Positions 20,355-58,950 of a stretch of DNA of 64,000 bases are shown here, one piece after another. This stretch comes from an uncultured beta proteobacterium (lineage in GTDB: Bacteria; Pseudomonadota; Gammaproteobacteria; Burkholderiales; Casimicrobiaceae). A program made the position numbers and the translations under genes. The DNA lies in contig CAWHNE010000029.1 in assembly GCA_963830485.1 (NCBI GenBank), forward strand, positions 437,903-501,902, in the 5' to 3' direction. The first letter of the stretch is position 1. Every line of letters starts with the position of its first letter. Below the pieces are notes generated by a model. The model was not told the origin of the DNA. It searched no databases and saw nothing but the letters and a program-made list of their open reading frames with translations.

Positions 20355-22349
20355 TCAGCCGCCGAACCCGAGCTTCTGCACGAACGGCTTCCAGCGCGGG
20401 TCGCCGTGCAGCGGCTCGAGGAGCCCGTCCACGGCCGTGTACACGACGCCCGGATCGCGCTGGACGTACGCCTTCTCGAGCCATTCGAACGCCTTGTCCG
20501 CGTCGTGCCGGTCGGCGTGGGCCTCAGCGACCTGGTACGCAGCCGTCCACCCGAATTCAGTCTCCAGCGTCCGCAGCGCCGCGTCCGCCTCGGTCTGCCG
20601 CCCGAGCGCGCGCTGAATCATCGCGAGTGCCAGGTTGCGGAAGACGGCGTGCGGCTCCGCCTCCGCCAGCGCCAACCCCTCCTGCGCGCGGCCCTGCAGC
20701 AGGCGCGTGATCGCGAGAAAGGCGTGACCGAGACCCGCGGTCGGATTCAGGTCGAGCGCGAGCTGGAACGCCGCCGCCGTGTCGTCGAGCCGATTCGACA
20801 TCAGATAGATCATCGCGGCCTGGCGATGCGTGGGGGCCGACAGCGGATCGAGCGCGATGGCCTTGCGCACCAGCTCGAGCGCCTCGTCGCGCCGCCCGAG
20901 AATCCGCGCCAGACTCGCGGCCGACCGCAAGGCGTGGGCGTCGCCCGGCGCGAGCTCCAGGGCGCGCCGGAACGACGCTTCCGCCGCCGGCCAGTTCCAG
21001 TCGTGGGCTTCCTGAATGTGGCCGAGCTCGATGTGGCCCTCGGCCAGATCCGGCGCGAGGGAGAGCGCGCGCTGCGCGGCCTCGCGGCCGCGCTCGTAGC
21101 CTTCGCCGATCGGCGCAAAGCCGTAACCCGCCTGGATTTGATGGATTCGCGACAGACCCGCCCACGCGAGCGCGAAGTTCGGATCGATGGCGAGCGCGCG
21201 CCGAAACAGCTCGATCGCCTTGTCGGTGTCTGCCTGCGTGGTCCGCTCACCGAAGAACTTGCCCTGGAGGTAGAGCTGGAAGGCTTCGGGATTGTCGCCG
21301 CGCCCGGCGGCGGCGCGGCGCACTTCGGCCGCCGCTGCGGTGCCTGCCGCGGTTTCGGCCGGCTCGCCCATCAGCGCGGCGCGAAGCTCCTTGACCACCG
21401 ACTGAGCGATGTCGTCCTGCACGGCGAAGATGTCGTCGAGCTCGCGGTCGTAGGTTTCCGACCACAGGTGCGAATCCGACTCGACCTCGATCAGCTGCGC
21501 GGTGATGCGCACGCGCTTGCCGGACTTGCGGACGCTGCCTTCGAGCACCGTGGCCACGTTGAGCTTCTGCGCGACGGTCGGGATGTCGACGTCCTTGCCC
21601 TTGAACGAGAACGCCGAGGTGCGCGACGCGACGCGCAGGCCGCGAATCTTCGCGAGCACGTTCAGGAGCTCTTCCGACAACCCATCGGCGAAATATTCGT
21701 TTTCTTCGTCGCGGCTCATGTTGACGAACGGCAGCACGGCGATGGATGGCGTTTCCTTGTCCGCCGGCGCGAGCTGCGACTTGAGCGGCGGGAAGCTCTG
21801 CTGCAGGTCGGGATGGCAGACCTGGAACACCGCTTCCGGCCGCCCGAGATCCTTGAGGCCATGTGACCCCAGCGCCTTGACGCTCGCGAGCGGCGGCAGG
21901 TGATCGCGGCAGAGGTCGTGCGTCGCTTCGGAGAGGAGCGTCTGCCCGCCGTGACCCGCCGCGAGCAGCCGCGCCACGCGGTTGAGCGGAGCACCGAAGT
22001 AGTCACCGTCCCGGACCTCGACCGCGCCCGAATGCAGCGCCATGCGCACGCGCAGCTTGGCCCCTTCGGGCCAGGGCTCGCGCGAGAGCGCCCGCTGCGC
22101 GTCGAGCGCCGCGGCGAGCGCGTCGGAGGCGGTGTGGAACGCGGCGCAAAAGGCGTCGCCTCCGGTCTTGAAGACGTGCCCGTCGTGATCGTCGATGCAG
22201 TCACGCAAGAGCGCATCGTGACGTGCGAGAGCGGCGCGCATCGCCGCCGCGTGCGTTTCCCACAGCCGCGTGCTGCCCTCGATGTCGGTGAAGAGGAACG
22301 TCACCGTGCCGGTCGGCAGCGAGGTTGTGGCGGCGCTTTGCGGGGTCAT
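20355..22349 (-). CDS. class III adenylate/guanylate cyclase fused to TolB-N-like and TPR domains
   Basis: Inside ORF 20355..22421, ATG 22349. Cyclase motifs VTFLFTDIEGSTRLWE, KTGGDAFCAAF, GAPLNRVARL. Then IAVLPFVNMS...YFADGLSEEL (TolB-N-like) and multiple TPR repeats. Confidence 0.9.
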   Translation of the reverse strand: MTPQSAATTSLPTGTVTFLFTDIEGSTRLWETHAAAMRAALARHDALLRDCIDDHDGHVFKTGGDAFCAAFHTASDALAAALDAQRALSREPWPEGAKLRVRMALHSGAVEVRDGDYFGAPLNRVARLLAAGHGGQTLLSEATHDLCRDHLPPLASVKALGSHGLKDLGRPEAVFQVCHPDLQQSFPPLKSQLAPADKETPSIAVLPFVNMSRDEENEYFADGLSEELLNVLAKIRGLRVASRTSAFSFKGKDVDIPTVAQKLNVATVLEGSVRKSGKRVRITAQLIEVESDSHLWSETYDRELDDIFAVQDDIAQSVVKELRAALMGEPAETAAGTAAAAEVRRAAAGRGDNPEAFQLYLQGKFFGERTTQADTDKAIELFRRALAIDPNFALAWAGLSRIHQIQAGYGFAPIGEGYERGREAAQRALSLAPDLAEGHIELGHIQEAHDWNWPAAEASFRRALELAPGDAHALRSAASLARILGRRDEALELVRKAIALDPLSAPTHRQAAMIYLMSNRLDDTAAAFQLALDLNPTAGLGHAFLAITRLLQGRAQEGLALAEAEPHAVFRNLALAMIQRALGRQTEADAALRTLETEFGWTAAYQVAEAHADRHDADKAFEWLEKAYVQRDPGVVYTAVDGLLEPLHGDPRWKPFVQKLGFGG

Positions 22350-22505
22350 GGGCGAACGCGGGGCTGCGACCGCCGGTCCGGCGTTCACGGCCGGCCGGCG
22401 AGGCGAGCCCGGACGCCGCATTATCGCCGGATTCGCGAGATTTCTCCCTGCCTGCGGTCGGGCAGGCGGGCGCGCAAGGCGAGGGCGGCGCCGCCGCCCG
22501 TCCCG

Positions 22506-23609: not shown

Positions 23610-23896
23610 CGAGGGGCCCGCTCGGTCGCCGGCTTCAGCGTTTCGAACGTCCGGAATCAGCGACGGGTTCACCGCGTGCATGTCGAACACGGCGCTGAGC
23701 GTGTAGCCGTCGGGTTTCCTTCGTGTGCACCGCGGTGCCGACGCGACGGATCTTCATGGGTCGGACGTTCCGCGGGTCAGGAACGTCGGCGTGCGGAGTA
23801 GCACTGCGATCGCGGACGCGGGGCGAGCGCTGCCGGAACGACTCGAGTCGGATACCATACCCCGTTCTTTGCACGTTTCGGCCCGAGGAGGTTTTC

Positions 23897-24904
23897 ATGC
23901 AGCCGCGCACGTACGTAGCGTCGAACGGTCTGGACACGAACGACGGAAGGCTCGCCACACCCTGCCGCTCGATCGGGGCCGCGCTCGCGCAGACCGATCC
24001 CGGCGGCGAGATCATCGTGCTCGACTCGGCAGGCTACGGCACAGTGGTCATCAACAAATCAGTGTCGGTCATCGCCCCGCCCGGCATCTACGCAGGGATC
24101 ACGGTGACGGCCGGCACCGGCATCGACGTCACCGCGGGCGTCGTGGCGCTGCGCGGACTCACCATCCGCGGGCCCGGCGGGATGGTCGGCATCCACGTGG
24201 GCAACGCGACGGTGCGCATCGACCGCTGCGTGATCTCGGGGCTGGGGCAGTATCGGCATCCATGCCGACACGCCGCCAGGCGAGGTCCACGTACGCGACA
24301 CGCAGGTCGCGCAGTGCGCCGAGGGCCTGCGGTTCGACGGCGCGATCCGGTTCTCGCTCGAACGCGTGCGCACCGAGGCGAACGGCAACGTCGGGCTGAA
24401 CGTGCTGAACGGCGCGTGGGGCAGCGCGCGCGACCTCGTGAGCGTGCGCAACGGCAACTACGGGGTCGGCGTCTCGACCAGCAGGGCCGGCGCCGCGTGC
24501 TACCTGGCGCTCGACGGCGGCGCGATCGCGGACAACGGCGCGGCTGGGATCAGCGCGGGCATTCCCGCGCCCGTCGCGGCCAGGCGTCCTCGTCACGGTG
24601 ACGCGAAGCATGATCACGGGGAACGGCGCCGACGGCATCGGCGTGTCGACGCAGGGCGCGGGGTCGGCGACCGCGGACGTCTCGGACTCGGTGATCGACG
24701 TCAACGCGCTGCGCGGCATCGTGGCCACGGGCGTGCGGCGCCGCCGCCGCCGTGTGCGGCAACCGGATCACGCGCAACGGCGGCTTCGGCCTCGCGCAAG
24801 TGGGTGGCGCGATGCTCAAGTCGGGGCAGGACAACATGGTCGAGGGCAACAACGCCGGCGGCGCGCAGACCAGCGGTGCGCTGACCGTGCTCGCGGCGGT
24901 GTGA
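23897..24904 (+). pseudogene. right-handed parallel beta-helix repeat protein, three frame breaks
   Basis: ATG 23897 after GAGGAGG: MQPRTYVASNGLDTNDG...CRSIGAALAQTDPGGEIIVLDSAGYG. The sensible reading hops +1 at ~24251, ~24583 and ~24733 (pieces in ORFs 23723.., 24366.., 24598..) and ends at TGA 24902-24904 (...SGALTVLAAV*). Confidence 0.75.
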
Positions 24905-25714: not shown

Positions 25715-25752
25715 CAACTGCCGCTCGCGGCCCGGGCCGCGAGGGGCAGTTG
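25715..25752. terminator. 17-bp-stem hairpin (one mismatch) between convergent genes
   Basis: CAACTGCCGCTCGCGGC-CCGG-GCCGCGAGGGGCAGTTG read from the sequence. It lies between the stops at 25697 (+) and 25769 (-). No U-tract. Confidence 0.5.
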
Positions 25753-27518: not shown

Positions 27519-28413
27519 ATGAGTTCCGCCGGGCAAGCGATGGCCGTGCTGTTCGCCGATGTCTCGGGGAGCACGCGCCTCTACGAGCAGGTGGGCGATG
27601 CGAAGGCGCTCGCGACAATCGTCGCGTGCCTCGCGCTCGTGCAGGAGGCCTCGGCGGGCCACGGCGGGCGCCTCGTGAAGACGATCGGCGACGAGGCGAT
27701 GGTCGTGTTTCCCGGCGCCGATCAGGCGGTGACCGCCGCCGGCGAGATCCAGCTTCGGATGAGCGAGCTCGCGCGCGAGCTCAACTTGAGGATCGCGCTG
27801 CGCGTCGGCCTCCACTGCGGCGAGGCGATCGAGTCGCAGAACGACGTCTACGGCGACTGCGTGAACGTCGCCGCGCGCATGGTTTCGCTGGCGAAGGGTG
27901 GGCAGGTGATCCTGACCGCGGCGACCGCCGACGCGCTGTCGCCGGAGCTGCGCGGCAAGGTGCGCGAGGTCGACGTCCTGACCGTCAAGGGCAAGGAGAA
28001 GGACATCGTGATCATGGAGCTCGTTTGGCAGGACTCGTCCGAGCTCACGACGCTTACGACGCGCCCGAAGCTGCGCCCGGCGCGCCTCGAGCTCGTGCAC
28101 GGCACGCGCGCGATCGAGCTCGGCCTCGCCGTCATGGCGGTGGCGATCGGCCGCGATGCGCAGAACGACGTCGTGATCGCCGACCGGCTCGCCTCGCGGC
28201 ATGCACGCGCGGATCGAGCGCCGGCGCGACAAGTTCGTGCTGGTCGACCAGAGCTCGAACGGGACCTTCGTGACGGTCGACGGCGAGGGCGAGATCCAGC
28301 TCCGCCGCGAGGAGCTGATGCTGCGCGGGCGCGGCCACATCAGCTTCGGCCACCCGTACGCCGCCGACCCTTCCGAGATTCTGCGCTACGCCTTCATCGC
28401 GGGCGACGGGTAG
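27519..28413 (+). pseudogene. class III nucleotidyl cyclase - FHA domain protein, one frame break
   Basis: Cyclase motifs AVLFADVSGSTRLYE, KTIGDEAMVVF, GDCVNVAARM in ORF 27519... The FHA domain begins ...VAIGRDAQNDVVIADRLASR and continues as HARIERRRDKFVLVDQSSNGTFV... in frame +1 (ORF 28201..28413). There is an extra base at ~28200. Confidence 0.8.
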
Positions 28414-28440
28414 CTGCACAGGCGCGATCACGAAACTTGC

Positions 28441-28512
28441 CGTCGTTCCCGCGAAGCGGAAACCCAGCGTCCTTCGGCGAACGTCACTGGGCCCCGCCTG
28501 CGCGGGGATGAC
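28441..28512. repeat. REP-like intergenic hairpin pair
   Basis: GTTCCCGCGAAGCGGAAAC (28445-28463) and CCCCGC-CTGC-GCGGGG followed by ATGAC (28492-28512). The antisense translation reads ...VIPAQAGP..., the signature of the common proteobacterial REP class. Confidence 0.55.
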
Positions 28513-28523
28513 AGCAGGCCGGT

Positions 28524-30897
28524 TCAGGTCGTCAGCTTCTTGAACGTGCCCGGATCCTTGATCACGCTCTTCTGGCGCTCGGGCGGCGCGCCGTAGAGGC
28601 CGGCCGGCGGATTCGTCTCGAGCCGTGACAGAACGGCAGCGGCGGCGCACGCCTTGTCGAACGCGACGGCTACGTTGTCGCCGTTGACTGCGCCGAGCGC
28701 GAAGCACGGCTGGCCGAGCTTGGCGTTGAGCGGCCTCAGGATCGCGGCGGCGACGAGATCGCCCGCGGCGTCCGTGCCTGCGAGCTGGACGTCGTAGACA
28801 CGCGGCTTCGCGGCGGGGCGCGCGGACGCGGCGATGACCTGCGGCAGCCCGAGGAACTCGCGGCCGACCGCGTCCTCGGTCGCCGCGTCGGGCAAGCCGT
28901 CGATGGCGAGCGCGATCTTCTGGCTCGACACGCTCGCGTGCTGCAGGAAGAAGTCGCGCGAGAACTCGTCGGCGATCTTCGCGCCGATCGCCTTCAGCGC
29001 CTCCTCCTCGCTGTTCCAGCTGCCGACGCTCGTCGGCAGCGCCGTGTTGAAGTAGATCTCCTCGCCGGTCGCGAGGTCGACGCACTTCACCGTCCACGAC
29101 GTCAGCGTGTACTTGGTCACCGGGAAGTCCGGAGGCCTCGAGCCGTGCGGAGAGCTTCTTCACCTTCGCCTCGCCGCGCACCGCGAAGTCCGCGCCGGCC
29201 TTGCCTTCGGGCGCGCCCTCTGCCCACGTGCGGAAGCCGAACGTCTTGATGCGCTCCTTCAGGATGTTCTCGGCGACCGGCGAAGTCTGCGGCGGCGCGT
29301 CGGGCTGGTCGGAATCGCGCACGGTCACCTGCACCGAGACTTTCGGGTCGCCGTTCGCGCGGATGATCTCGACCCGCTCGTCGCGCGTCATCTGGTTCAG
29401 CGACTTCTGCAGCGCCTTCACGTTGACGACCGCCTCGGTGGTGACGGCCATGAGCCCGTCCTTGCCCACGCGCGGCTCGCTTTCGCGCACGACCGTCTCG
29501 ATGTACGCGCCGCTGTTCGACAGCAGCTTCGTCTTGAGCAGATCGTAGTGCTTCGCGAGCGACTTCGAGTCGAGGAGGAGCCCGAGCGCCTTCGCAACGA
29601 CCTGGCTCTTCGCGTCGGCGCGAGCGTCGTCCTGCTGCAGCGCCTTGTCGCCCTTGTAGCGGGGATCGGCGGGATCGACGAGGCCGACGGCCGAGATCGT
29701 GACCGTGCCGGGCGTGGCGACCGGCAGGGGCGCCGGCGCTTTGGCGGGCGCCGGAGGCGCGACCGGCGACGGCGGCGTCGCGGACGCGGGCGCCTGCGCG
29801 GTGTGCGTGATGTCGGGACCGAAGCGCTGCCAGGCGAACCATGCGCTGGCGCCGAGCGCGACCGCCACGGCCACGGCGACGATCGCGCCCGGCGGGACGC
29901 GCGAAGGTGTAGGAGGCGGACCGGCGGAGGTCGTCGTCAGCGGGGGCGGAGGCACCGGCCGCGGCGGGATCGTCGCGGTGCGCGTCGCAGTCGCGGTCGC
30001 CTCGGGGGTCGCCATGACGGTCGCGTCGGTGCTGCCGGCGCGCACGCCCGGCAGCGTCACGCCGGCGCCGCCGCCGGCCGCCTGCGCCGCCGCTTCGATC
30101 GCGTCGATGAATTCCTGCGCGGTCTGGTAGCGCTCGTCGGCGTGCTTCGCGAGCGCCTTGCGCACGACCGCGTCCATCACCGGCAGCACCTGCACGTTGA
30201 GCGACGACGGCGGCAGCGGGTCCTCCTTCAGCACCTTCTGCATCGTCGTCGTCGACGAGCCGGAAAACGGCCGTTCACCGGTCAGGAACTGGTAGAGGAT
30301 CACGCCCGCGGAAAAGAGATCGGAGCGCCCGTCAACGGGCAGCCCGAGGATCTGCTCGGGCGACATGTAGGACGGCGTTCCGAGCACGGTGCCGACCTGC
30401 GTGAGGTTCGACGCCTCGATGTGCGCGATGCCGAAGTCGCCGACTTTCACCGAGCCGTCGGTCAGGAGAAAGATGTTCGCGGGCTTCACGTCGCGGTGGA
30501 TCACGCCCTGCTTGTGCGAATAGTCGAGCGCGCCCAGGATCTGCTTCATGATCCGCACGATGTCCGGAATGCGGAAGCGCTCGTTCGCCTCGAAGCACGC
30601 CTTGAGCTCGCGCCCCTGGACGAACTCCATCGCGATGTACCAGATGCCGCCTTCCTCGCCGAAATCGTAGATCGACACGATGTTCGGGTGGTTGAGCCGG
30701 CCCGCCGCCTGCGCCTCGCGGCGGAAGCGGTTGATCATCTGCGCCGAATCCTCGTCGGTGAGCTGATCCCGGCGAATCGTCTTCAGCGCGACGACGCGCT
30801 TGATCATCGGATCGTATGCCTCGTAGACGACGCCCATCGCGCCGCGGCCGATCTCGCGCCGGATCTCGTACTTGCCGATGTGGTCGATTTCGGGCAT
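28524..30897 (-). pseudogene. transmembrane Ser/Thr protein kinase with large periplasmic domain, one frame break
   Basis: ATG 30897. Hanks motifs GRGAMGVVYEA, VALKTI, HRDVKPANIF, DFGIA, GTPSYMSPE. TM segment GAIVAVAVAVALGASAWFAW. The periplasmic part continues from ...KLSARLEASGLP into ORF 28524..29120 (...TKYTLTSWTVKCVDLATGEEIYF...) after a +1 break at ~29125. Confidence 0.85.
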
Positions 30898-30970
30898 GCG
30901 TGACTCCCTGCCTCAAGACGGCGACGCCGGCGGCAGGCCGGCGTCGCTTGGCGTGCGGTCAGCCGGCCGG

Positions 30971-31807
30971 CTACTTGTATTTCTGGTCGATTTCCCACAC
31001 GTTCTTCTGAACGAGCCGCTGCACCATCGTGTCGAGCGACACGCCGCCCTGCTGCGCCTGGTTGACGCCGAGGAAGCCCGACGATTTCGCGCCGATCTCC
31101 ATCTTCTCCTCGGTATAGCCCGTCGCGACCTGCTCGGTGGTCTCGGCGTTGATGATCTTGTAGCGCATGCCGATGACCCAGACGCTCGTCGCTTCCTCCG
31201 AGTGGGCCGAGCCTACGGCCGTGCCGCCGACGGCGCCCGCCTGCGCGCCGCCGCGCGACCCCGAGAACGCGCCCAGCAGGCCGGCCATCTGACCGAGCGT
31301 GCGACCGTCGAAGCCGGACTGCGCGGAGGCGACCTGCTCGGTCTTGAGGATGTCGAACTTGACCACGTATTTCGTCGCCTTGAGCTTGCCCATCTTCAGG
31401 AACTTGCGCGCCTGGTCGGGATCACCGAGGTTGTAGGCGAGCTCGAACTCCTTGAGCAACGGCCCCAGGTTCGAGCGCTCGAGCACCGTAAAGTTGGCGC
31501 TGGAGAGCTCGATCTCGCCGAAGTCCGCGATGTTGTTCGCGGTGAACTTCTGCAGGAACGTCGCATTGTTGCTCTTGATCTCGCCGGGAATCACCACCAG
31601 CGCCGGGCCCTTGCGGCTGGCGTTGGTGTAGGTCACCGGCTGGTAGATCGTCTGGTCCGCGGCGGCGTTGGCCTTTTGCGATGTTTCGCCGCCCGCCGTC
31701 GGCGAAGGGTTGCCCCAGGTCGGCTGCGCCGAAGCGGCGGTGGCGGCCGCGAGAAGGGCGGTCCCGAGCAGGATCTGCAGGGTGACGAGGCGTGCGCGTT
31801 GGCTCAT
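30971..31807 (-). CDS. CsgG/HfaB-like secreted protein
   Basis: 278 aa with signal ...LLAAATAASA. ...VVIPGEIKS..., ...FTVLERSNLGPLLKEFEL..., ...KYVVKFDILK..., a Gly-rich loop and ...VWVIGMRYKIINAETTEQVATG... follow the CsgG-family pattern as I recall it. Confidence 0.6.
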   Translation of the reverse strand: MSQRARLVTLQILLGTALLAAATAASAQPTWGNPSPTAGGETSQKANAAADQTIYQPVTYTNASRKGPALVVIPGEIKSNNATFLQKFTANNIADFGEIELSSANFTVLERSNLGPLLKEFELAYNLGDPDQARKFLKMGKLKATKYVVKFDILKTEQVASAQSGFDGRTLGQMAGLLGAFSGSRGGAQAGAVGGTAVGSAHSEEATSVWVIGMRYKIINAETTEQVATGYTEEKMEIGAKSSGFLGVNQAQQGGVSLDTMVQRLVQKNVWEIDQKYK

Positions 31808-31852
31808 GGCAGGGTCCTCCGAGTGCGTCGTCGATACGAACGCGTGATGGAA

Positions 31853-32539
31853 CTAGTTCTGCTTTCGGGGTGCAGCGCCCGCAATGCGGCAGTAATCCGA
31901 ATACAGCGTGGCGACCACCTCGTCCGCCTGCTCGTTGACGAGGGTGAGCGCCATCCGCGAGACGTCGGCGCCGGCGTACGATCCGGAATGCGCATCGGCC
32001 TCCGAGATGATCCGGCCGCCCCCGGTCAGCGTGAAATGCATGTTCACCATGACCTGGTTCACGTTCATCATCGGGTTGCGCGTCGCGTCGGCCGTGATCA
32101 GCCCCTTGAGGGCGAAGCTCGCGCCGAGCCGCTTGGCCGCGGAGAGCATCGCGTCCTGGTCGTTCTTGAAGTATGCGTCGATCTCGGCCTGCGCGATCTG
32201 GCGGCGGATCTCCTCGGGTGTGTACGTGCGGAGCCCCACGCTGCGGAGTCGGTTGTTGATCGCGTCGAACAGCGGACCGTAGTTCTGCTGCTCGGCGGCG
32301 ATGATGCCGTTCGACCGCCGCTCGCCGATCAGGACCACGATCTTCTTATCCTTGATCGAGGCGCGGCAGGGCGTGGAGAGCTGCGCCGCGATGCGGTTCT
32401 GTCGCGCCTCCTGCTCCTGCCGCTCCGAATCGTCCTGCTGCGAGAACTTGAAGCCCGGCTGCTGGGCGAGCGCGGGTCCGGACGCCAGCAGTGCGGCGAG
32501 CACGAGCGCGCAGGCGCGGGAATGGGACCGGGCGGGCAT
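31853..32539 (-). CDS. hypothetical periplasmic protein
   Basis: Inside ORF 31853..32566, ATG 32539 (MPARSHSRACALVLAALLASGPALA). 228 aa. First gene of the minus-strand unit that ends with the kinase. Confidence 0.6.
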   Translation of the reverse strand: MPARSHSRACALVLAALLASGPALAQQPGFKFSQQDDSERQEQEARQNRIAAQLSTPCRASIKDKKIVVLIGERRSNGIIAAEQQNYGPLFDAINNRLRSVGLRTYTPEEIRRQIAQAEIDAYFKNDQDAMLSAAKRLGASFALKGLITADATRNPMMNVNQVMVNMHFTLTGGGRIISEADAHSGSYAGADVSRMALTLVNEQADEVVATLYSDYCRIAGAAPRKQN

Positions 32540-32771: not shown

Positions 32772-33584
32772 ATGAGTGCAAATGTTGCAAGATCGTTCGC
32801 GGCGGCGCTGGGCGTCGCTTCCGCAATGTTCGCGGCGCAGGCCGCGGCGCAGTTGACGCTCTACGAAGGTGAAGGATTCCGCGGCCACTCGTTCACGGCG
32901 AACGGGCCGATCTCCAATCTCGACGGATCGGGGTTCAACGATCGCGCGTCGTCGGCCATCGTCGACCGCGGGCGGTGGGAACTCTGCGAGCACGCGGATT
33001 TCGGCGGCCGTTGCATCGTGCTGGAGAAGGGGCAGTATCCATCGCTCGCGTACGCGGGGTTCAACAACCAGGTCTCGTCGATGCGACGCGTCAGCGGTCG
33101 ACCGAACACGGGTTACGCCCCGCCGCCGCCGCCTCCGCCGCAACCGTATCCGTACTATCAGCGCTACGGGGAGACGCTCTATCAAGCCGATGTCGTCGCC
33201 GTCCGAGCGGTCGTCGGTCCGCCTGAGCAACGCTGCTGGGTCGAGCAGCAGCAGGTCCAGTCGGGCGGCGGGCCCAACGTCGGCGGCGCCATTATCGGCG
33301 GCATTCTGGGCGGCGTGCTCGGCCACCAGATCGGCAGCGGGCGCGGCAATGACGTGGCCACTGCCGTCGGCGCCGTCGCGGGTGCGGCCGTCGGGTCGAA
33401 CGTGAACCGCGGGAGCCCGCAGACCTACACGCAGAATGTCCAGCGCTGCGAGGCCGTTCCTTCGGCACAGCCGGCGTACTGGGACGTGACCTACGTGTTC
33501 CGCGGCAACACGCACCGCGCCCAGCTCGCATTCGCCCCGGGCTCGACCATCACGGTCAACGGACGCGGGGAGCCGCGCGTGTAG
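32772..33584 (+). CDS. beta/gamma-crystallin domain - Pro-rich linker - glycine-zipper (17-kDa-antigen-like) protein
   Basis: Signal MSANVARSFAAALGVASAMFAAQAAA. Crystallin-like LTLYEGEGFRGHSF...FNDRASSAIV...WELCEHADFGGRCIVLEKGQYPSL...NNQVSSMRRV. PPPPPPPQPYPYY linker. Glycine zipper GGAIIGGILGGVLGHQIGSGRGN...AVGAVAGAAVG. Confidence 0.8.
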   Translation: MSANVARSFAAALGVASAMFAAQAAAQLTLYEGEGFRGHSFTANGPISNLDGSGFNDRASSAIVDRGRWELCEHADFGGRCIVLEKGQYPSLAYAGFNNQVSSMRRVSGRPNTGYAPPPPPPPQPYPYYQRYGETLYQADVVAVRAVVGPPEQRCWVEQQQVQSGGGPNVGGAIIGGILGGVLGHQIGSGRGNDVATAVGAVAGAAVGSNVNRGSPQTYTQNVQRCEAVPSAQPAYWDVTYVFRGNTHRAQLAFAPGSTITVNGRGEPRV

Positions 33585-54027: not shown

Positions 54028-57000
54028 TCAGATCTTGCCGAGCGTGAACGTCGTGGCCGCCGAACTCACGGACGACAGAAGCCGCTTCCGCGCCTCGCGC
54101 GCCAGCTCGAGCATGCGCACGCTCGGCAGGTCGTCGGTGTAGGTGTGCGGCAGGTAGTTGCCGGGCAGCACGGCGCCCAGGCCGCCCGCCAGGTCGCGCG
54201 GACGCACGCCGCGCAGCCTGGCCAGGTCGAAGGCCTCGTGGATCACGTCGACCGCGTCGTCGAAGCTCCAGGCGTCCTGGCCCAGGCGCGGCGGCAGCGC
54301 GAGCAGGATCGACTGCGGCGGACGGGCGCCCGGCGCGTCGTAGTGGAATCCGATCCCCGCGGTCTGGAACGGATCGGGAACGAACTCGGGCCACTCGTCG
54401 CAGACGAAGGCCGCGATGGCGCTGTCGCCGGCGATTGCCGCCACGCCGGGCGCGTGCAACACGATGGCCAAGTCGGGCGCGACGCGGTTGATGTCGCGGT
54501 ACCGCGGCTCCGGCTTCGCCGCGAGATAGGCGCGCAATTCCTCGGGCACCTGCTTGGGATCGAACGGCGTGCCTTCGTCCTCGCGCCAGGCTTCGGGGAG
54601 GGCCGCCCAGGCGTGCCCCGACTGATGCGGGAACTGCACGACCTGAAGGTCGCCGAGTGCCAACGGTGCGCACAACGCTTCGTGCGCCGACACGGCCGCG
54701 GCAAAGCGATCCGCGCCTTCGCGCACGCGCGCCGCCTGGCACAGCCAGCCGTTGATGCGCCACGGATCGGCTGCGCAGAGCGCGGCCTGGTCGGCGAGCG
54801 ACGCATTGAATTCGGTCGCGTAGGGGCCGATGGTGAATTTCGGCAGCACCGGGAAATCCTTGCCGAGGAGGCGCTTGATCCGCTCGATCGCATGCTGGAC
54901 ACGTTGCGCGTCGGTCGGGCCGACCTGACCGGCGAGGAGCGGCGGATCGGCATGCACGTCGTCGTGCAGCGCATCGAGGATCGGCTGCAGCGCGACAATC
55001 GCTTCGGCCGCGCGGGCATTTCGGGTCGCGGGATCGGCGCCGGGCGCATCGATGGCGAACACCTGCGCCGGCCACGCCACTTCCGGCAGCAGGTCGGTGA
55101 ACGCCGAGAGGGCCGCCAGCAATCCATCGGCGTCGACGCTGGCGAGAAGCGCGGCGCGGGCCGCATCGAACTCGGCGACGAGCGCGTCGGCGCGCGCGAC
55201 GATCTCGGCGACGTCGACGCCGCGATATTCGCCCATCGGCGGCAGTGCCGCTTCGAGCTTGTCGTCGATGCGCACGACATCCTTGCGCGTCGCATGGCGC
55301 GCCTTGCCGATGAGCGCCTTCAGCGTCATCGCGATCGCTTCGAACTGGGCGAGTCCGAGCGAATCGGCCTCCTCGACGTCGTCGCCATGCGGCTCGATGT
55401 CGAGCAGCGACACGCTCGCGGCGTCGACCACCTTGGCGATCAGCGCCGTCGCCACCGCGCTGCGAAAGCCGGTCTCGGCCGGACCCGCGAGCCGCGCGGC
55501 GACGACGCCCTCGGCCAGCAGGACCGCCGACAGCGGCGACAGCCCAAGGTCGTCCCAGGTCGCGACGATCGGAAGGGCGTCGATCACGTCGTTGCCGTCG
55601 GCATCCCGCCGATGCACGCGCGCGACGAACCGGTAGCGGCCGGGGTCGCCCAGCATCGTCGCGATCCACGCATTGAGCGCGGGCTCGGCGCGCGAGCGGC
55701 GATCATCGGGCCAGCCGTCGACGGGATCCGGACACACGACGGCGATGCGCTGCGTGTAGCTTGCGCCGCCGCGCGGCGTGCGTCCGACCTGGTTCTCGAT
55801 CGGCAGCGTCTGCTTGTCGGCCACCGCCATCGCCGCCGCCGCGCGCGCGGGGTTGCCCTGGACGATCTGATGCGCGCCTTCGGCGAGCAGCAGGTCGCTG
55901 ACGCTGTCGGCCAGGTCCGCCGCATCCGCGATGATGTTCGCGATCGTCGGCTGTTCGCCAGGCAGTATCGCGGCCGGCGGAACCAGGCCCGCCAGCGAGG
56001 CGGCAAGTTTTGCGATGACGGTACCGGGCCCCTTTTCCCAATCGGCCAGCACGGCGACGCCGTCGACGACGTCGCGCGCACCGATCGCCTCCGTCGCATC
56101 GCCGGGCAATCCGCCGCCGACCGGACGCCACGGATACGCGAGCCGCAACGGCCAGATGAACTTGCCGAGCTGGGCGTCGCGCAGCCCGCGCTCGATGCGA
56201 TAGCCGTAGAGCGCCGCGAGCGGCTGGTCGCGCGTGAGTCCCTGCAGGATGTCGCTCGCGCGGCGCGTCCGCTTGGAGTCGAGCGCGATGTCGAAGGCGC
56301 CCTGCTCGTGATTCGCCATGAAGCCGCTGCGCAGGATCGCCGCCGTCGCCGCCTGCCCCTGCGACGGCGCGAGCAGGAAGCCCTCGCTGTCGGGACGGTC
56401 GTCGGCCTTCAGGTTCTCGCACCCAGGCGTAGCCGCCGACGTAGAGGCCGGTCGGCTTGCGCCGCGCGCATCTGCTCGAGCCGGCGATTGGCGCGCGCCG
56501 CGATCCAGGCGTCGAGGCGGTACGAGAACGCGTCGAGCGTGGAGCGGAATGCGATGTTGAGTTCGCCGACGGTGCGCGTGGACAGGAAGTCGAGGCTCAG
56601 CTTGACCGCACCCAGATTGCGCGTCTGCGGGAGCACATGGGCTACCGAGCTCGAAGAGCCCGTCGGACGCGCGCGAGGCCACGCTCTTGCCTTGCGGCTG
56701 CAACTGCGCGCTGAGCGTATTGGCGACGTGCTCGCCAAGCGTCGCGCGCCCGGTGACGGCCGGGATGGACACGCTCGCCAGTTCCTTCGGCGTCTGCACG
56801 GTGAACATCGCCTTCGTTTTCGGCGACGGCCTCGACGTAGGGCATCGTCGACGTTGCACGCGAGACGACCCGGCTCACCGCGCCGCTCACGTCGACGAAG
56901 CGGTCGACGGCGTCGCCCTGCTCCTTCTGCACCGAGTAGGCGGCGAGCGCCTGCAGCAGCGCGGGACCGGCCTGGCTCGCGTCGAGAACGGCTTGCCCGC

Positions 57001-58950
57001 TGCCGGCGTCTGGATCGCGGCTTGGGCGATGGCGTGGAGATAGTTGTTGGAGTCCACGAAGCTCGTGTCGTCGCGCGGCTTCCTTGGTCGGATCCTTGTC
57101 GTCGGCGAGCACCCACGGCACGCCGGCGAGATAGCCCGGCGAGTACGGCGGGTCGGGCAGGAAGTCGTTGCACACCCCGATGTGCGTTTCCCAGTAGTTG
57201 AACGGGCCCAGCGCCGAGATCACGCTCTGGATGAGCGGATTGCGACCGCTCGACTGCGCATCGGAGAACGGCGTCGGCATCATGCACATCGCCTTGGCGT
57301 CCTTGTCGCGGTAATACGCCGTCTGCGACCAGGCTCCGGTCTGCAGGATGTCCTTCGCCTTGTCGAGGTCGCCGTCCTCGAGCAGCGGAACACTGTTGCT
57401 CGCCAGCTCCCACATCGGGCGCAGCACGCCCAGCACCTTGCCGATCGCGGTCTCGACCTGCGAATCGCCCGGATCGGCAAAGCGCTTGCCGACGAGCGGC
57501 AGCATGCCGTACGGCTGTTCGTCCACGCGCAGGACCGGCAACGGGCCGGTCGGCCGCACGTACGACACGGCGTAGCGGCGCAACGCGTAGAGCCCTGACG
57601 TGCCGAGCACTTCCTTGCCGCCGACCATCGGATTCCACATCTGCATCACGTAGTCGCCGAACGTGCCGCGCCACAGCACGTTCATCATGTGCAGGCCGGT
57701 GCGCTGGTCCGTGAGATGCGGATTCTCGATGTTGTCGGCGGGAAGCGCCTCGGGCGCGATGCCGAACGCCCACTGCAGCAGCTGCAGCGCGTCCTGGTCC
57801 TCCTTGCTGGCGCCCGGGGCGGGAGGCGGAGGCAGATTGTTTCGAGCTCGGGCTGTAACCCGCCGGCGCGGCCTCCGTGTTGTTGGTCGGCGTGCCGAGC
57901 GCGGCGAATCCCAGGCCGCTCGAATCCCGATGCGCGGCGAGGAGGTCGGTGAAGTCGGCGGCGCTGTCCGCGGCGCTCTTCGTCCACTCGAAGCCGACGA
58001 CGACCAGCCGCTCCAGCGTGCCGGTGGCGAGATCGAAGCGGGTGCCAGGCGACGGCGCGATCCTGTCCTGCGTCACTTCGATGGCCATGCCGTTCTTGAG
58101 CGCCGCGTCGAAGTCGACCATCCACGCGCGGTCGCCACCGAGCAGGGCCTCGGGGTCGTCGGTCGCGAGCCAGTCCGGCGAGAGCACCAGTTCGTCGGGA
58201 ATCGTGTTGCCCCAGACGCGAAAGACCTCGCGCCGCCCCGCGGCATAGCCGATCGCGCACCAGCGCTCCGGCAACAGGACCGCGCGCGTGGTCTTGGCGA
58301 GCGCATCGATGGTGTCCGTCGGCGGAAACGCGGGCTCGGCTTCCGCGTCGGGCGCCGGCACCGGATTGCTCGGCGTGTGAACGCGCACGAGCCAGAGCGC
58401 GCGACCGCGGCCGTAGAACCGTCGTCAGGTCGCGCAGGATGCGCGCGGCCTCGTCGTCGTCGTGCGCGAAGCGCGCGCGCCAGTACCCCATCGCCGCCTG
58501 CTGCTCGTCGGCGGTGGGCGTGGGCTCGTGGTCGATGGTGTTGAGGTCGTCGGGATAGATCCGAATGCGCAACCGGATCGGCTGTCCCGGCACGCGGAAA
58601 TAGCGCGTCTCGATGCGCATCGGCAGCAGCGCGATCGGGATGTGTCCGTCGAGGGCGCCGACCAGCGTGGACGGGTCGCGGTTGCGCACCAGGCCGTCGG
58701 CCAGTTCGTCCATCCGATTCTGCAGCGTGCGACGTTCGGTGACGAGCGCGTTGCGCGCCGCCTGCGCGGAGGCCACGCGTGCGCTCAGCGCTTTCCGCTC
58801 GTCCGCGGAGGCGCCGGAGCGGACCGCCGCGTCGAGCGCGGTCTTCGCGGATGCGATCTTGGCCTCTGCGGTGCGTTGCCGCAGCGCCAGCCGATCGAGT
58901 TCGGTTCGCGTTCGCGTGAAGCCGCTCAAGTCGATGTCGATGCGGGGCAT
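54028..58950 (-). pseudogene. giant-operon gene 3: ~1640-aa hypothetical with N-terminal coiled coil, about eight frame breaks
   Basis: ATG 58950: MPRIDIDLSGF..., a ~90-aa heptad-like stretch, then ...LLPMRIETRYF... Breaks at ~58428, ~57845, ~57083, ~56990 (-1), ~56818, ~56645, ~56458 and ~56419. From 56400 to the stop at 54028 it is one clean 790-codon frame (ORF 54028..56859). The pieces lie in ORFs 57685..58950, 56409..58388 and 56642..57688. Confidence 0.75.

Follow-up and report, generated by a model that had tools for sequence, protein, structure and literature searches.

A receptor Ser/Thr kinase of Casimicrobiaceae whose ectodomain is homologous to a subunit of a predicted three-protein envelope module

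We analysed 64,000 nucleotides (nt) of DNA, hereafter the window, from an uncultured beta proteobacterium (positions 437,903 to 501,902 of contig CAWHNE010000029.1, assembly GCA_963830485.1). The source is a metagenome-assembled genome (MAG) from soil, assigned to the Casimicrobiaceae (Burkholderiales), and the G+C content of the window is ~69%. A minus-strand unit encodes an exported protein (P1), a CsgG-like exported protein and a Hanks-type Ser/Thr kinase with a large periplasmic ectodomain (Ecto); a class III cyclase fused to a forkhead-associated (FHA) domain is encoded convergently (Table 1). The open reading frame (ORF) list and Pfam searches place all four genes where an initial annotation, made from the sequence alone, had put them, and its description of an envelope-associated signalling cluster is borne out by the kinase, FHA and cyclase motifs. 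Genes of the minus-strand unit are separated by just 45 and 73 nt, a spacing consistent with an operon; a promoter and terminator scan was uninformative in this GC-rich DNA. Two metagenome contigs found by exact-protein look-up (L001, 734 kb; L002, 796 kb) share 99.3% identity with the window across 21 kb and served for comparison.

Table 1. Features of the locus in window coordinates, with the evidence for each.
Feature	Position	Strand	Evidence
Class III adenylate-cyclase domain with C-terminal FHA domain, 290 amino acids (aa) if intact	27519/27540..28413	+	Pfam
1-nt insertion interrupting the cyclase-FHA reading frame immediately ahead of the SxxH motif of FHA	28200	+	absent in L001, L002
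Intergenic spacer, 110 nt, between the convergent kinase and cyclase-FHA genes	28414..28523	.	contains GC hairpin 28493-28508
Ecto, ~395 aa, three alpha/beta domains	28524..29712	-	AlphaFold2 (AF2), Foldseek, hmmsearch
1-nt insertion breaking the kinase frame inside Ecto domain 2	29121	-	absent in L001, L002
Juxtamembrane Thr/Pro/Ala-rich linker, transmembrane segment (~29824-29892), periplasmic Pro/Ala linker	29713..30084	-	sequence
Hanks-type Ser/Thr kinase domain, cytoplasmic	30085..30897	-	Pkinase PF00069, E=7e-54
CsgG-like exported protein, 278 aa, signal peptide, without lipobox Cys	30971..31807	-	Pfam, AF2, Foldseek
P1, exported, 228 aa, LpoB-like, two invariant Cys	31853..32539	-	ORF, Pfam

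The kinase gene as a whole (28524-30897, minus strand) contains a single hydrophobic segment, GAIVAVAVAVALGASAWFAW, and the catalytic motifs VVALK (VAxK), HRDVKPAN, DFGIA and SYMSPE are present, as read from an intact orthologue. A Hanks kinase with one transmembrane segment and a large periplasmic domain had been proposed here, and this is what we found, with a folded ectodomain somewhat longer than the ~380 aa first estimated. Ecto has no Pfam family. Its AF2 model, with a predicted local distance difference test score (pLDDT) of 83 and a predicted template modelling score (pTM) of 0.76, comprises three alpha/beta domains. The best Foldseek match was FlgT of the Vibrio LPHT ring (8z5n chain 0; E=5.9e-7, 370 aligned columns), at a template modelling (TM) score of just 0.25-0.28, followed by HpaA, LptE and PelC.

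Over its entire length Ecto is homologous to a secreted protein that stands alone, with a signal peptide of its own and without a kinase. In Desulfobacterota and Campylobacterota this protein belongs to a kinase-free operon in the order P1 > Ecto > CsgG-like lipoprotein, carried by Desulfuromonas thiophila, Fundidesulfovibrio butyratiphilus, a Desulfobulbaceae MAG and a Sulfurospirillaceae MAG. The two proteins encoded ahead of the CsgG-like lipoprotein, of 215-236 and 440-479 aa, have no Pfam match; hidden Markov models (HMMs) built from the Casimicrobiaceae proteins identify them as a P1 homologue (E=3e-42 to 4e-69) and a full-length Ecto homologue (hmmsearch, E=8e-105 to 2e-121), respectively, and HMM E-values for the stand-alone trios range overall from 1e-42 to 1e-127. 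When metagenomes were scanned with the ectodomain family as seed, the P1 > Ecto > CsgG-like trio was complete in 31 cases and Ecto was fused to a kinase at 17 loci; at a further 19 loci Ecto was the sole module gene detected, some of these being on short contigs. The trio operon is known from at least three phyla (Pseudomonadota, Desulfobacterota and Campylobacterota). As judged from these sequence comparisons, P1, the CsgG-like protein and Ecto are predicted to be three exported subunits of a conserved envelope module. Since Ecto exists as a stand-alone protein in kinase-free trios, the kinase has captured a subunit of a pre-existing module: in the Casimicrobiaceae the Ecto gene is joined through a Pro/Ala linker and one transmembrane helix to a cytoplasmic Hanks kinase, and with this fusion the gene order changed to P1 > CsgG-like > kinase-Ecto.

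The Casimicrobiaceae arrangement is itself highly constant. With each species represented by a single genome, a scan detected relatives of the 278-aa CsgG-like protein in at least 530 genomes, and the best 80 loci were analysed; all are from the Casimicrobiaceae-type lineage, with homologues labelled Casimicrobiaceae or uncultured betaproteobacteria. The pairing of a CsgG-like gene with a kinase gene recurs throughout, the order P1 > CsgG-like > kinase catalytic domain > Ecto being kept in 80/80 loci, contig permitting (tblastn). P1 lies upstream of the CsgG-like gene in 79 of the 80, and the remaining locus is interrupted by a contig end. Clustering of the flanking ORFs across these loci identified nothing conserved beyond the core; the flanks vary. 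Within the core, the CsgG-like protein is the most conserved across relatives (73-95% identity) and the ectodomain the least (53-83%). The initial annotation had called the coupling of kinase and CsgG-like protein unusual. It is conserved, and it is not a loose neighbourhood, as Ecto itself is the third subunit of the conserved operon.

Ecto and P1 are also found joined to other signalling enzymes. A 686-aa protein (P0235; locus L092, 8001-10061) carries an N-terminal TIR_2 domain, one transmembrane segment and an Ecto with 60% identity to that of the kinase, a topology like that of a Toll-like receptor; its gene stands alone between ABC-transporter genes. A periplasmic Peptidase_C14 (caspase-like) protein with a signal peptide, present in Sulfuricystis multivorans and a Rhodocyclaceae MAG, has a C-terminal P1 domain (E=2e-26). 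Its gene lies immediately upstream of those for two CsgG-like paralogues, of which one is a lipoprotein and the other is not. Rosetta-stone-type fusions of this kind imply a physical link, and those of Ecto or P1 to a kinase, a TIR domain and a caspase-like peptidase suggest that the module may be read out or used by signalling enzymes. PADLOC gave only generic kinase, cyclase, TIR and caspase matches, none for P1 or the CsgG-like protein, and no specific defence system, so a defence-system reading is without direct support.

Several genes close to the trios were recorded in passing. At the Sulfuricystis and Rhodocyclaceae loci (L083, 3565-7903; L091, 3575-7936) two exported Peptidase_C14 proteins precede the CsgG-like paralogues, the P1 domain being on the second, and a gene for an autotransporter-type beta-barrel lies just upstream. 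In the Sulfurospirillaceae MAG, a 234-aa exported repeat protein (L090, 4280-4984) is encoded directly upstream of the stand-alone trio. Its repeats of ~31 aa (..NVQGAxNVAIGSKNTANMGSV..) resemble a beta-solenoid or curlin-like fibre subunit, and it has no Pfam match and a weak NCBIfam match to pentapeptide repeats; it could be a substrate, and no equivalent was found in the four other stand-alone-trio loci checked. A ~220-aa TPR lipoprotein follows the stand-alone trio in Fundidesulfovibrio (L088, 7801-8466) and on a metagenome contig (L127, 8357-9016), possibly as a fourth component in some lineages. In L127-L129, a separate kinase gene lies 3 kb downstream of the trio. The ectodomain of this kinase is small and different, and we judged the position of the gene probably coincidental.

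The 278-aa protein had been described as a CsgG/HfaB-like exported protein, and of that description the fold and the signal peptide stand. In the AF2 model the core is predicted at pLDDT >80 and two insertions at <50. The CsgG core alpha/beta fold is present: the best Foldseek match in the PDB was CsgG (4uv3/4uv2; E=6e-8, TM-score 0.37-0.47), most of the top 35 matches were CsgG chains with a probability of 1.0, and HpaA, FlgT, GNA1162 and PelC, which share the alpha/beta fold, came after. Insertion 1 (~aa 160-205) is Gly-rich and contains a GxxxG glycine zipper, insertion 2 spans ~aa 240-256, and both fall at positions equivalent to the two membrane hairpins of CsgG. Glycine-zipper Pfam models were matched by one member of the family.

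The corresponding sequence signals are very weak. The protein narrowly misses the gathering cut-off of Pfam CsgG (PF03783; 20.6 vs 20.8 bits, residues 102-165 only), just 5/39 family members match that model at E<=0.01, and an NCBIfam search gave no match. Alignment of the family profile with E. coli CsgG by hhalign was weak and covered the N-terminal half (E=7.6e-4), with beta1, the constriction-loop Phe and the LER..L..LL.E motif among the aligned features; the lipobox in this alignment stems solely from the lipoprotein members of the profile. Neither the window protein, whose signal peptide ends ..ASAQP with no Cys, nor its Casimicrobiaceae orthologues have a lipobox Cys. Of the genes called up to 10 kb to either side in L001 and L002, none belongs to the CsgE, CsgF, CsgA or CsgB families. 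The Pfam cut-off, the lipid anchor and the curli partners are thus the parts of the CsgG comparison that did not hold. The initial annotation had staked the assignment on CsgG-family profiles; with the Pfam score just under the cut-off and CsgG as the best structural match, we retain it as a remote family membership, and a channel function is putative.

It is very improbable, in our estimation, that the 278-aa protein shares nothing with CsgG beyond a common alpha/beta fold and that its place beside the kinase reflects mere inheritance within one family. The subthreshold Pfam score with matches in so few members, the modest TM-scores and the origin of all 80 loci in one family-level lineage would accord with this. 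Against it, the trio is conserved across phyla in a different gene order, the core is constant while the flanks vary, and a subunit of the module is the kinase's own ectodomain, a Rosetta-stone-type link.

P1 had been noted as an exported 228-aa protein, and both its length and an N-terminus resembling a signal peptide (..GPALA before QQ) agree. It has no Pfam family of its own. The sole sequence signal is LpoB, matched weakly by the window protein (E=0.017) and by 24/40 P1 orthologues (best E=5e-4), which hints weakly at a fold class for P1. The predicted folds of the CsgG-like protein and Ecto are of the CsgG/LpoB/LptE/PelC/FlgT type. Such folds are typical of outer-membrane-associated proteins, several of which form rings. 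Sequence searches of the PDB with single proteins and with profiles of the P1, CsgG-like and Ecto families found nothing meaningful.

Relatives of the CsgG-like protein fall into only 256 clusters (50% identity) in an exhaustive HMMER search. Distant homologues are lipoproteins with an LxGC lipobox, and some carry extensions: LysM, PG_binding_1 or SH3, these three at the C-terminus, or FGE-sulfatase. CsgG-like proteins of a ~426-458-aa class with a C-terminal extra domain were set aside, as their genes are solitary and none for P1, Ecto or a kinase lies nearby. The peptidoglycan-binding types of extension bring in another explanation, in which the module is not a channel but monitors peptidoglycan or the cell wall, the CsgG-like protein and P1 act as LpoB-type adaptors where outer membrane and peptidoglycan meet, and the kinase reads the state of the wall, as Gram-positive PASTA kinases do. 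The LpoB signal of P1 would fit, as would the non-channel relatives HpaA, GNA1162 and PelC among the Foldseek matches and the missing CsgG lipid anchor. We consider this rather unlikely: the top structural match is CsgG and not LpoB, the insertions coincide exactly with the positions of the CsgG transmembrane hairpins, and the Casimicrobiaceae proteins are without a peptidoglycan-binding domain.

The convergent gene was predicted to encode a class III cyclase fused to an FHA domain, which Pfam confirms (Guanylate_cyc PF00211, E=1e-20; FHA PF00498, 24.2 bits vs a cut-off of 20.7 for the fragment in the window). An intact orthologue is annotated FHA and Yop-YscD_cpl. It has the motifs FADVSG, KTIGDE, NDVYGD and VNVAAR, which we take, from established class III knowledge, to supply the two metal-binding Asp, the Lys/Asp adenine pair and the transition-state Asn/Arg. 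The FHA residues for binding phospho-threonine are present: IGRD (GR), SRMH (SxxH) and SNGT (NG). An orthologue of this gene adjoins the core in 24/69 informative loci, in two arrangements: convergent and downstream in 21 loci of one clade, and upstream of P1 in three loci of another. A sub-clade of the 21-locus clade has no FHA-cyclase gene, which looks like secondary loss. Retention of the same orthologue beside the core in two arrangements suggests that core and cyclase are functionally connected in some members of the family. The kinase and FHA-cyclase had been said to form an obvious relay; the catalytic and phospho-threonine-binding residues it would need are there, and what must be given up is its generality, the cyclase being lineage-restricted and outside the core. 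We infer a relay from kinase to FHA-cyclase, and the FHA-adenylate cyclase is likely a lineage-restricted output of the kinase module.

A second cyclase 5 kb away, also noted before, is present at 20355-22421 on the minus strand and combines a class III cyclase domain with a FlgO/TolB-N-like region and TPR. Only in the closest relatives is it conserved beside the unit. The trio proteins and the non-catalytic part of this cyclase may belong to one fold class.

Each signalling gene had been reported to carry one frame break; we found both and refined their positions (Table 1). Counts of breaks rest on direct comparison with L001 and L002, in which the kinase (790/791 aa) and the cyclase-FHA protein (290 aa) are intact. 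Relative to these contigs the window has six private 1-nt insertions in 21 kb, one of them intergenic and two in a beta-helix gene. Private indels occur in both L001, with five insertions, and L002. Many relatives are long-read soil MAGs with kinase gene calls broken in the same way, often in the linker or transmembrane region through indels. As the insertions are private and other genes of the window are broken alike, both frame breaks are, on sequence comparison, most likely consensus errors of long-read assembly, and the kinase/cyclase system is probably intact in the organism. That the cluster is instead decaying in this genome, with both signalling genes true pseudogenes and the relay off, strikes us as markedly improbable. 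Both breaks are present in the sequence and would remove half of the ectodomain and the FHA domain; set against this are the absence of the insertions from two 99.3%-identical contigs, the position of one of the six between genes, the comparators' own private indels, the damage to other window genes and the same artefact in long-read relatives.

Other irregularities of the window were also listed. The beta-helix gene (23723-24900, plus strand) is broken at 24254 and 24736, further private insertions or frame switches lie at 25738 and 22381, and a very large minus-strand gene (54028-58950) is split across at least 3 frames. All six compared inserted bases are G or C, in or beside a CG/CCG context, which may reflect systematic long-read error.

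No known system fits the locus as a family, and CsgG, the non-curli csgG clusters, type VI secretion and FlgT serve as analogies. CsgG has a lipid anchor as a defining feature, and its amphipathic beta-hairpins form a transmembrane barrel in the nonamer. The window protein has the same order of secondary structure, with its two insertions where CsgG has the TM1 and TM2 hairpins; its first insertion is twice as long as that of CsgG and contains the glycine zipper. CsgG is a lipoprotein, as are the distant CsgG-like members, whereas the window protein is not.

The closest architecture to Ecto is that of FlgT, a TolB-N-like multi-domain periplasmic protein of the Vibrio H-ring (with FlgO and FlgP). 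FlgT assembles under the outer membrane together with two partner proteins. The low TM-score indicates a different arrangement of the domains, FlgT and Ecto have no sequence similarity, and no flagellar genes were found near the locus.

In the signalling pathway of the Pseudomonas H1 type VI secretion system (T6SS), phospho-threonines of the kinase recruit the FHA protein Fha1. This pathway, TagQRST-PpkA-Fha1-PppA, in which an outer-membrane lipoprotein and a periplasmic protein feed a single-pass Hanks kinase (see also PMC5995506), has the signalling logic closest to the kinase/FHA-cyclase cluster. It differs in the type of the PpkA ectodomain and in having a scaffold as the FHA partner, where the present locus has an enzyme, the adenylate cyclase. 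No T6SS core genes were found among the neighbours, and no PP2C (PppA-type) phosphatase was seen beside the core.

Closest as a system are the non-curli csgG clusters, which are widespread three-gene clusters encoding CsgG and two lipoproteins, one of them GNA1162/TolB-like; in Acinetobacter baumannii UPAB1 such a cluster affects surface matrix, pili and biofilm (bioRxiv 10.1101/2021.05.19.444899). Like the trio, they are three-gene envelope operons that combine a CsgG relative with partners of TolB-N/LpoB fold. Their CsgG, however, is bona fide, and a fusion to a kinase is not reported there. P1 and Ecto had no Pfam match, even at E<=1, to the partner families (GNA1162/DUF799 and the second lipoprotein). 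Literature searches on a CsgG-like protein together with a kinase, and on FHA-cyclases, returned no directly relevant paper.

We put the chances at about even that an envelope module fused to the kinase is tethered at the outer membrane and relays to the FHA-cyclase and cyclic AMP (cAMP). P1, Ecto and the CsgG-like protein would come together on the inner face of the outer membrane, where the glycine-zipper hairpin insertions might hold the CsgG-like subunit in the membrane, and the kinase would thereby be tethered from the inner membrane to an outer-membrane complex. Changes in the assembly, load or spacing of the complex could then alter how the kinase oligomerises and how it autophosphorylates its Thr-rich juxtamembrane linker, which includes a TATATRTAT stretch. 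Phospho-threonines of that linker would, in the clade of the window, serve as docking sites for the FHA domain of the neighbouring adenylate cyclase, and this docking could change cyclase dimerisation and cAMP output.

A number of observations weigh against this tethered relay. The insertions, at their low pLDDT, leave membrane insertion and pore formation unproven, and the window protein is missing the lipid anchor. Profile comparisons by hhalign of P1 with Ecto, of P1 with the CsgG-like protein and of Ecto with the CsgG-like protein were not significant, with local matches at topologically equivalent strands, so we do not claim common ancestry for the three. No FHA-cyclase was found within 8 kb in 45/69 informative loci, and neither a phosphatase nor a further FHA protein was conserved nearby. 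Class III cyclases described as non-FHA are frequent, at ~12 per Mb of fetched loci, so that a neighbouring cyclase is weak evidence by itself. Finally, trios occur without a kinase, and signalling would therefore not be the primary job of the module.

Some of the same facts could be read from the inside out, with the kinase not sensing the module but controlling or anchoring its assembly from the cytoplasm, and the cyclase as an unrelated neighbour. PpkA-Fha1 gates type VI secretion, which gives a precedent. The scarcity of FHA-cyclases beside the core, the abundance of other cyclases in these genomes and the existence of trios that function kinase-free would suit such a scheme; yet a cytoplasmic kinase could not directly phosphorylate a periplasmic module, and FHA-cyclase orthologues are kept beside the core in two arrangements. 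We think control of this kind distinctly unlikely.

Two further elements flank the minus-strand unit. The kinase and cyclase genes had been described as separated by a repetitive extragenic palindromic (REP) hairpin. The spacer does contain a hairpin with a 6-bp GC stem (CCCCGC-ctgc-GCGGGG), present as a single copy with no repeat elsewhere in the window. The motif CCCGCNNNNGCGGGRATGA (window 28490-28512) nonetheless recurs, with 8 occurrences in 92 fetched loci against a roughly estimated chance expectation of ~0.04; 7/8 fall in related Casimicrobiaceae-type loci, and the loci named besides the window are L010, L043, L082 and L092. The hairpin is plausibly a dispersed REP-like element of the lineage, and its action as a bidirectional terminator is possible. 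Divergent from P1, at 32772-33584 on the plus strand, lies a gene whose 270-aa exported product combines beta/gamma-crystallin domains with a glycine-zipper segment (Rick_17kDa_Anti) at its C-terminus; the CsgG-like insertion is likewise a glycine zipper. A crystallin-domain gene occurs within a few kb of the trio, on either side, in ~13/80 related loci, a loose association.

Receptor Ser/Thr kinases with an FHA partner and clusters with CsgG-like lipoproteins are of known kinds; undescribed are the three protein families themselves, which have no curated family and are nevertheless widespread. A bolder proposal, which we rate as quite unlikely, is that P1, Ecto and the CsgG-like protein form an undescribed outer-membrane ring or pore that acts as a receptor for envelope breach or another surface event, with cAMP as its output in the Casimicrobiaceae. 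If this were true, the subunits of such a receptor would have been fused repeatedly to immune-type heads (Hanks kinase, TIR and caspase-like peptidase), with a topology like that of Toll or receptor-kinase sensors, and would signal through cAMP by way of a phospho-threonine-gated cyclase. Cultured carriers exist for the stand-alone trio (Desulfuromonas thiophila and Fundidesulfovibrio butyratiphilus) and for the caspase-P1 fusion (Sulfuricystis multivorans). The locus thus provides testable hypotheses for the roles of non-curli CsgG-like envelope complexes, and for a Gram-negative Hanks kinase that may be wired from the outer membrane to cAMP.

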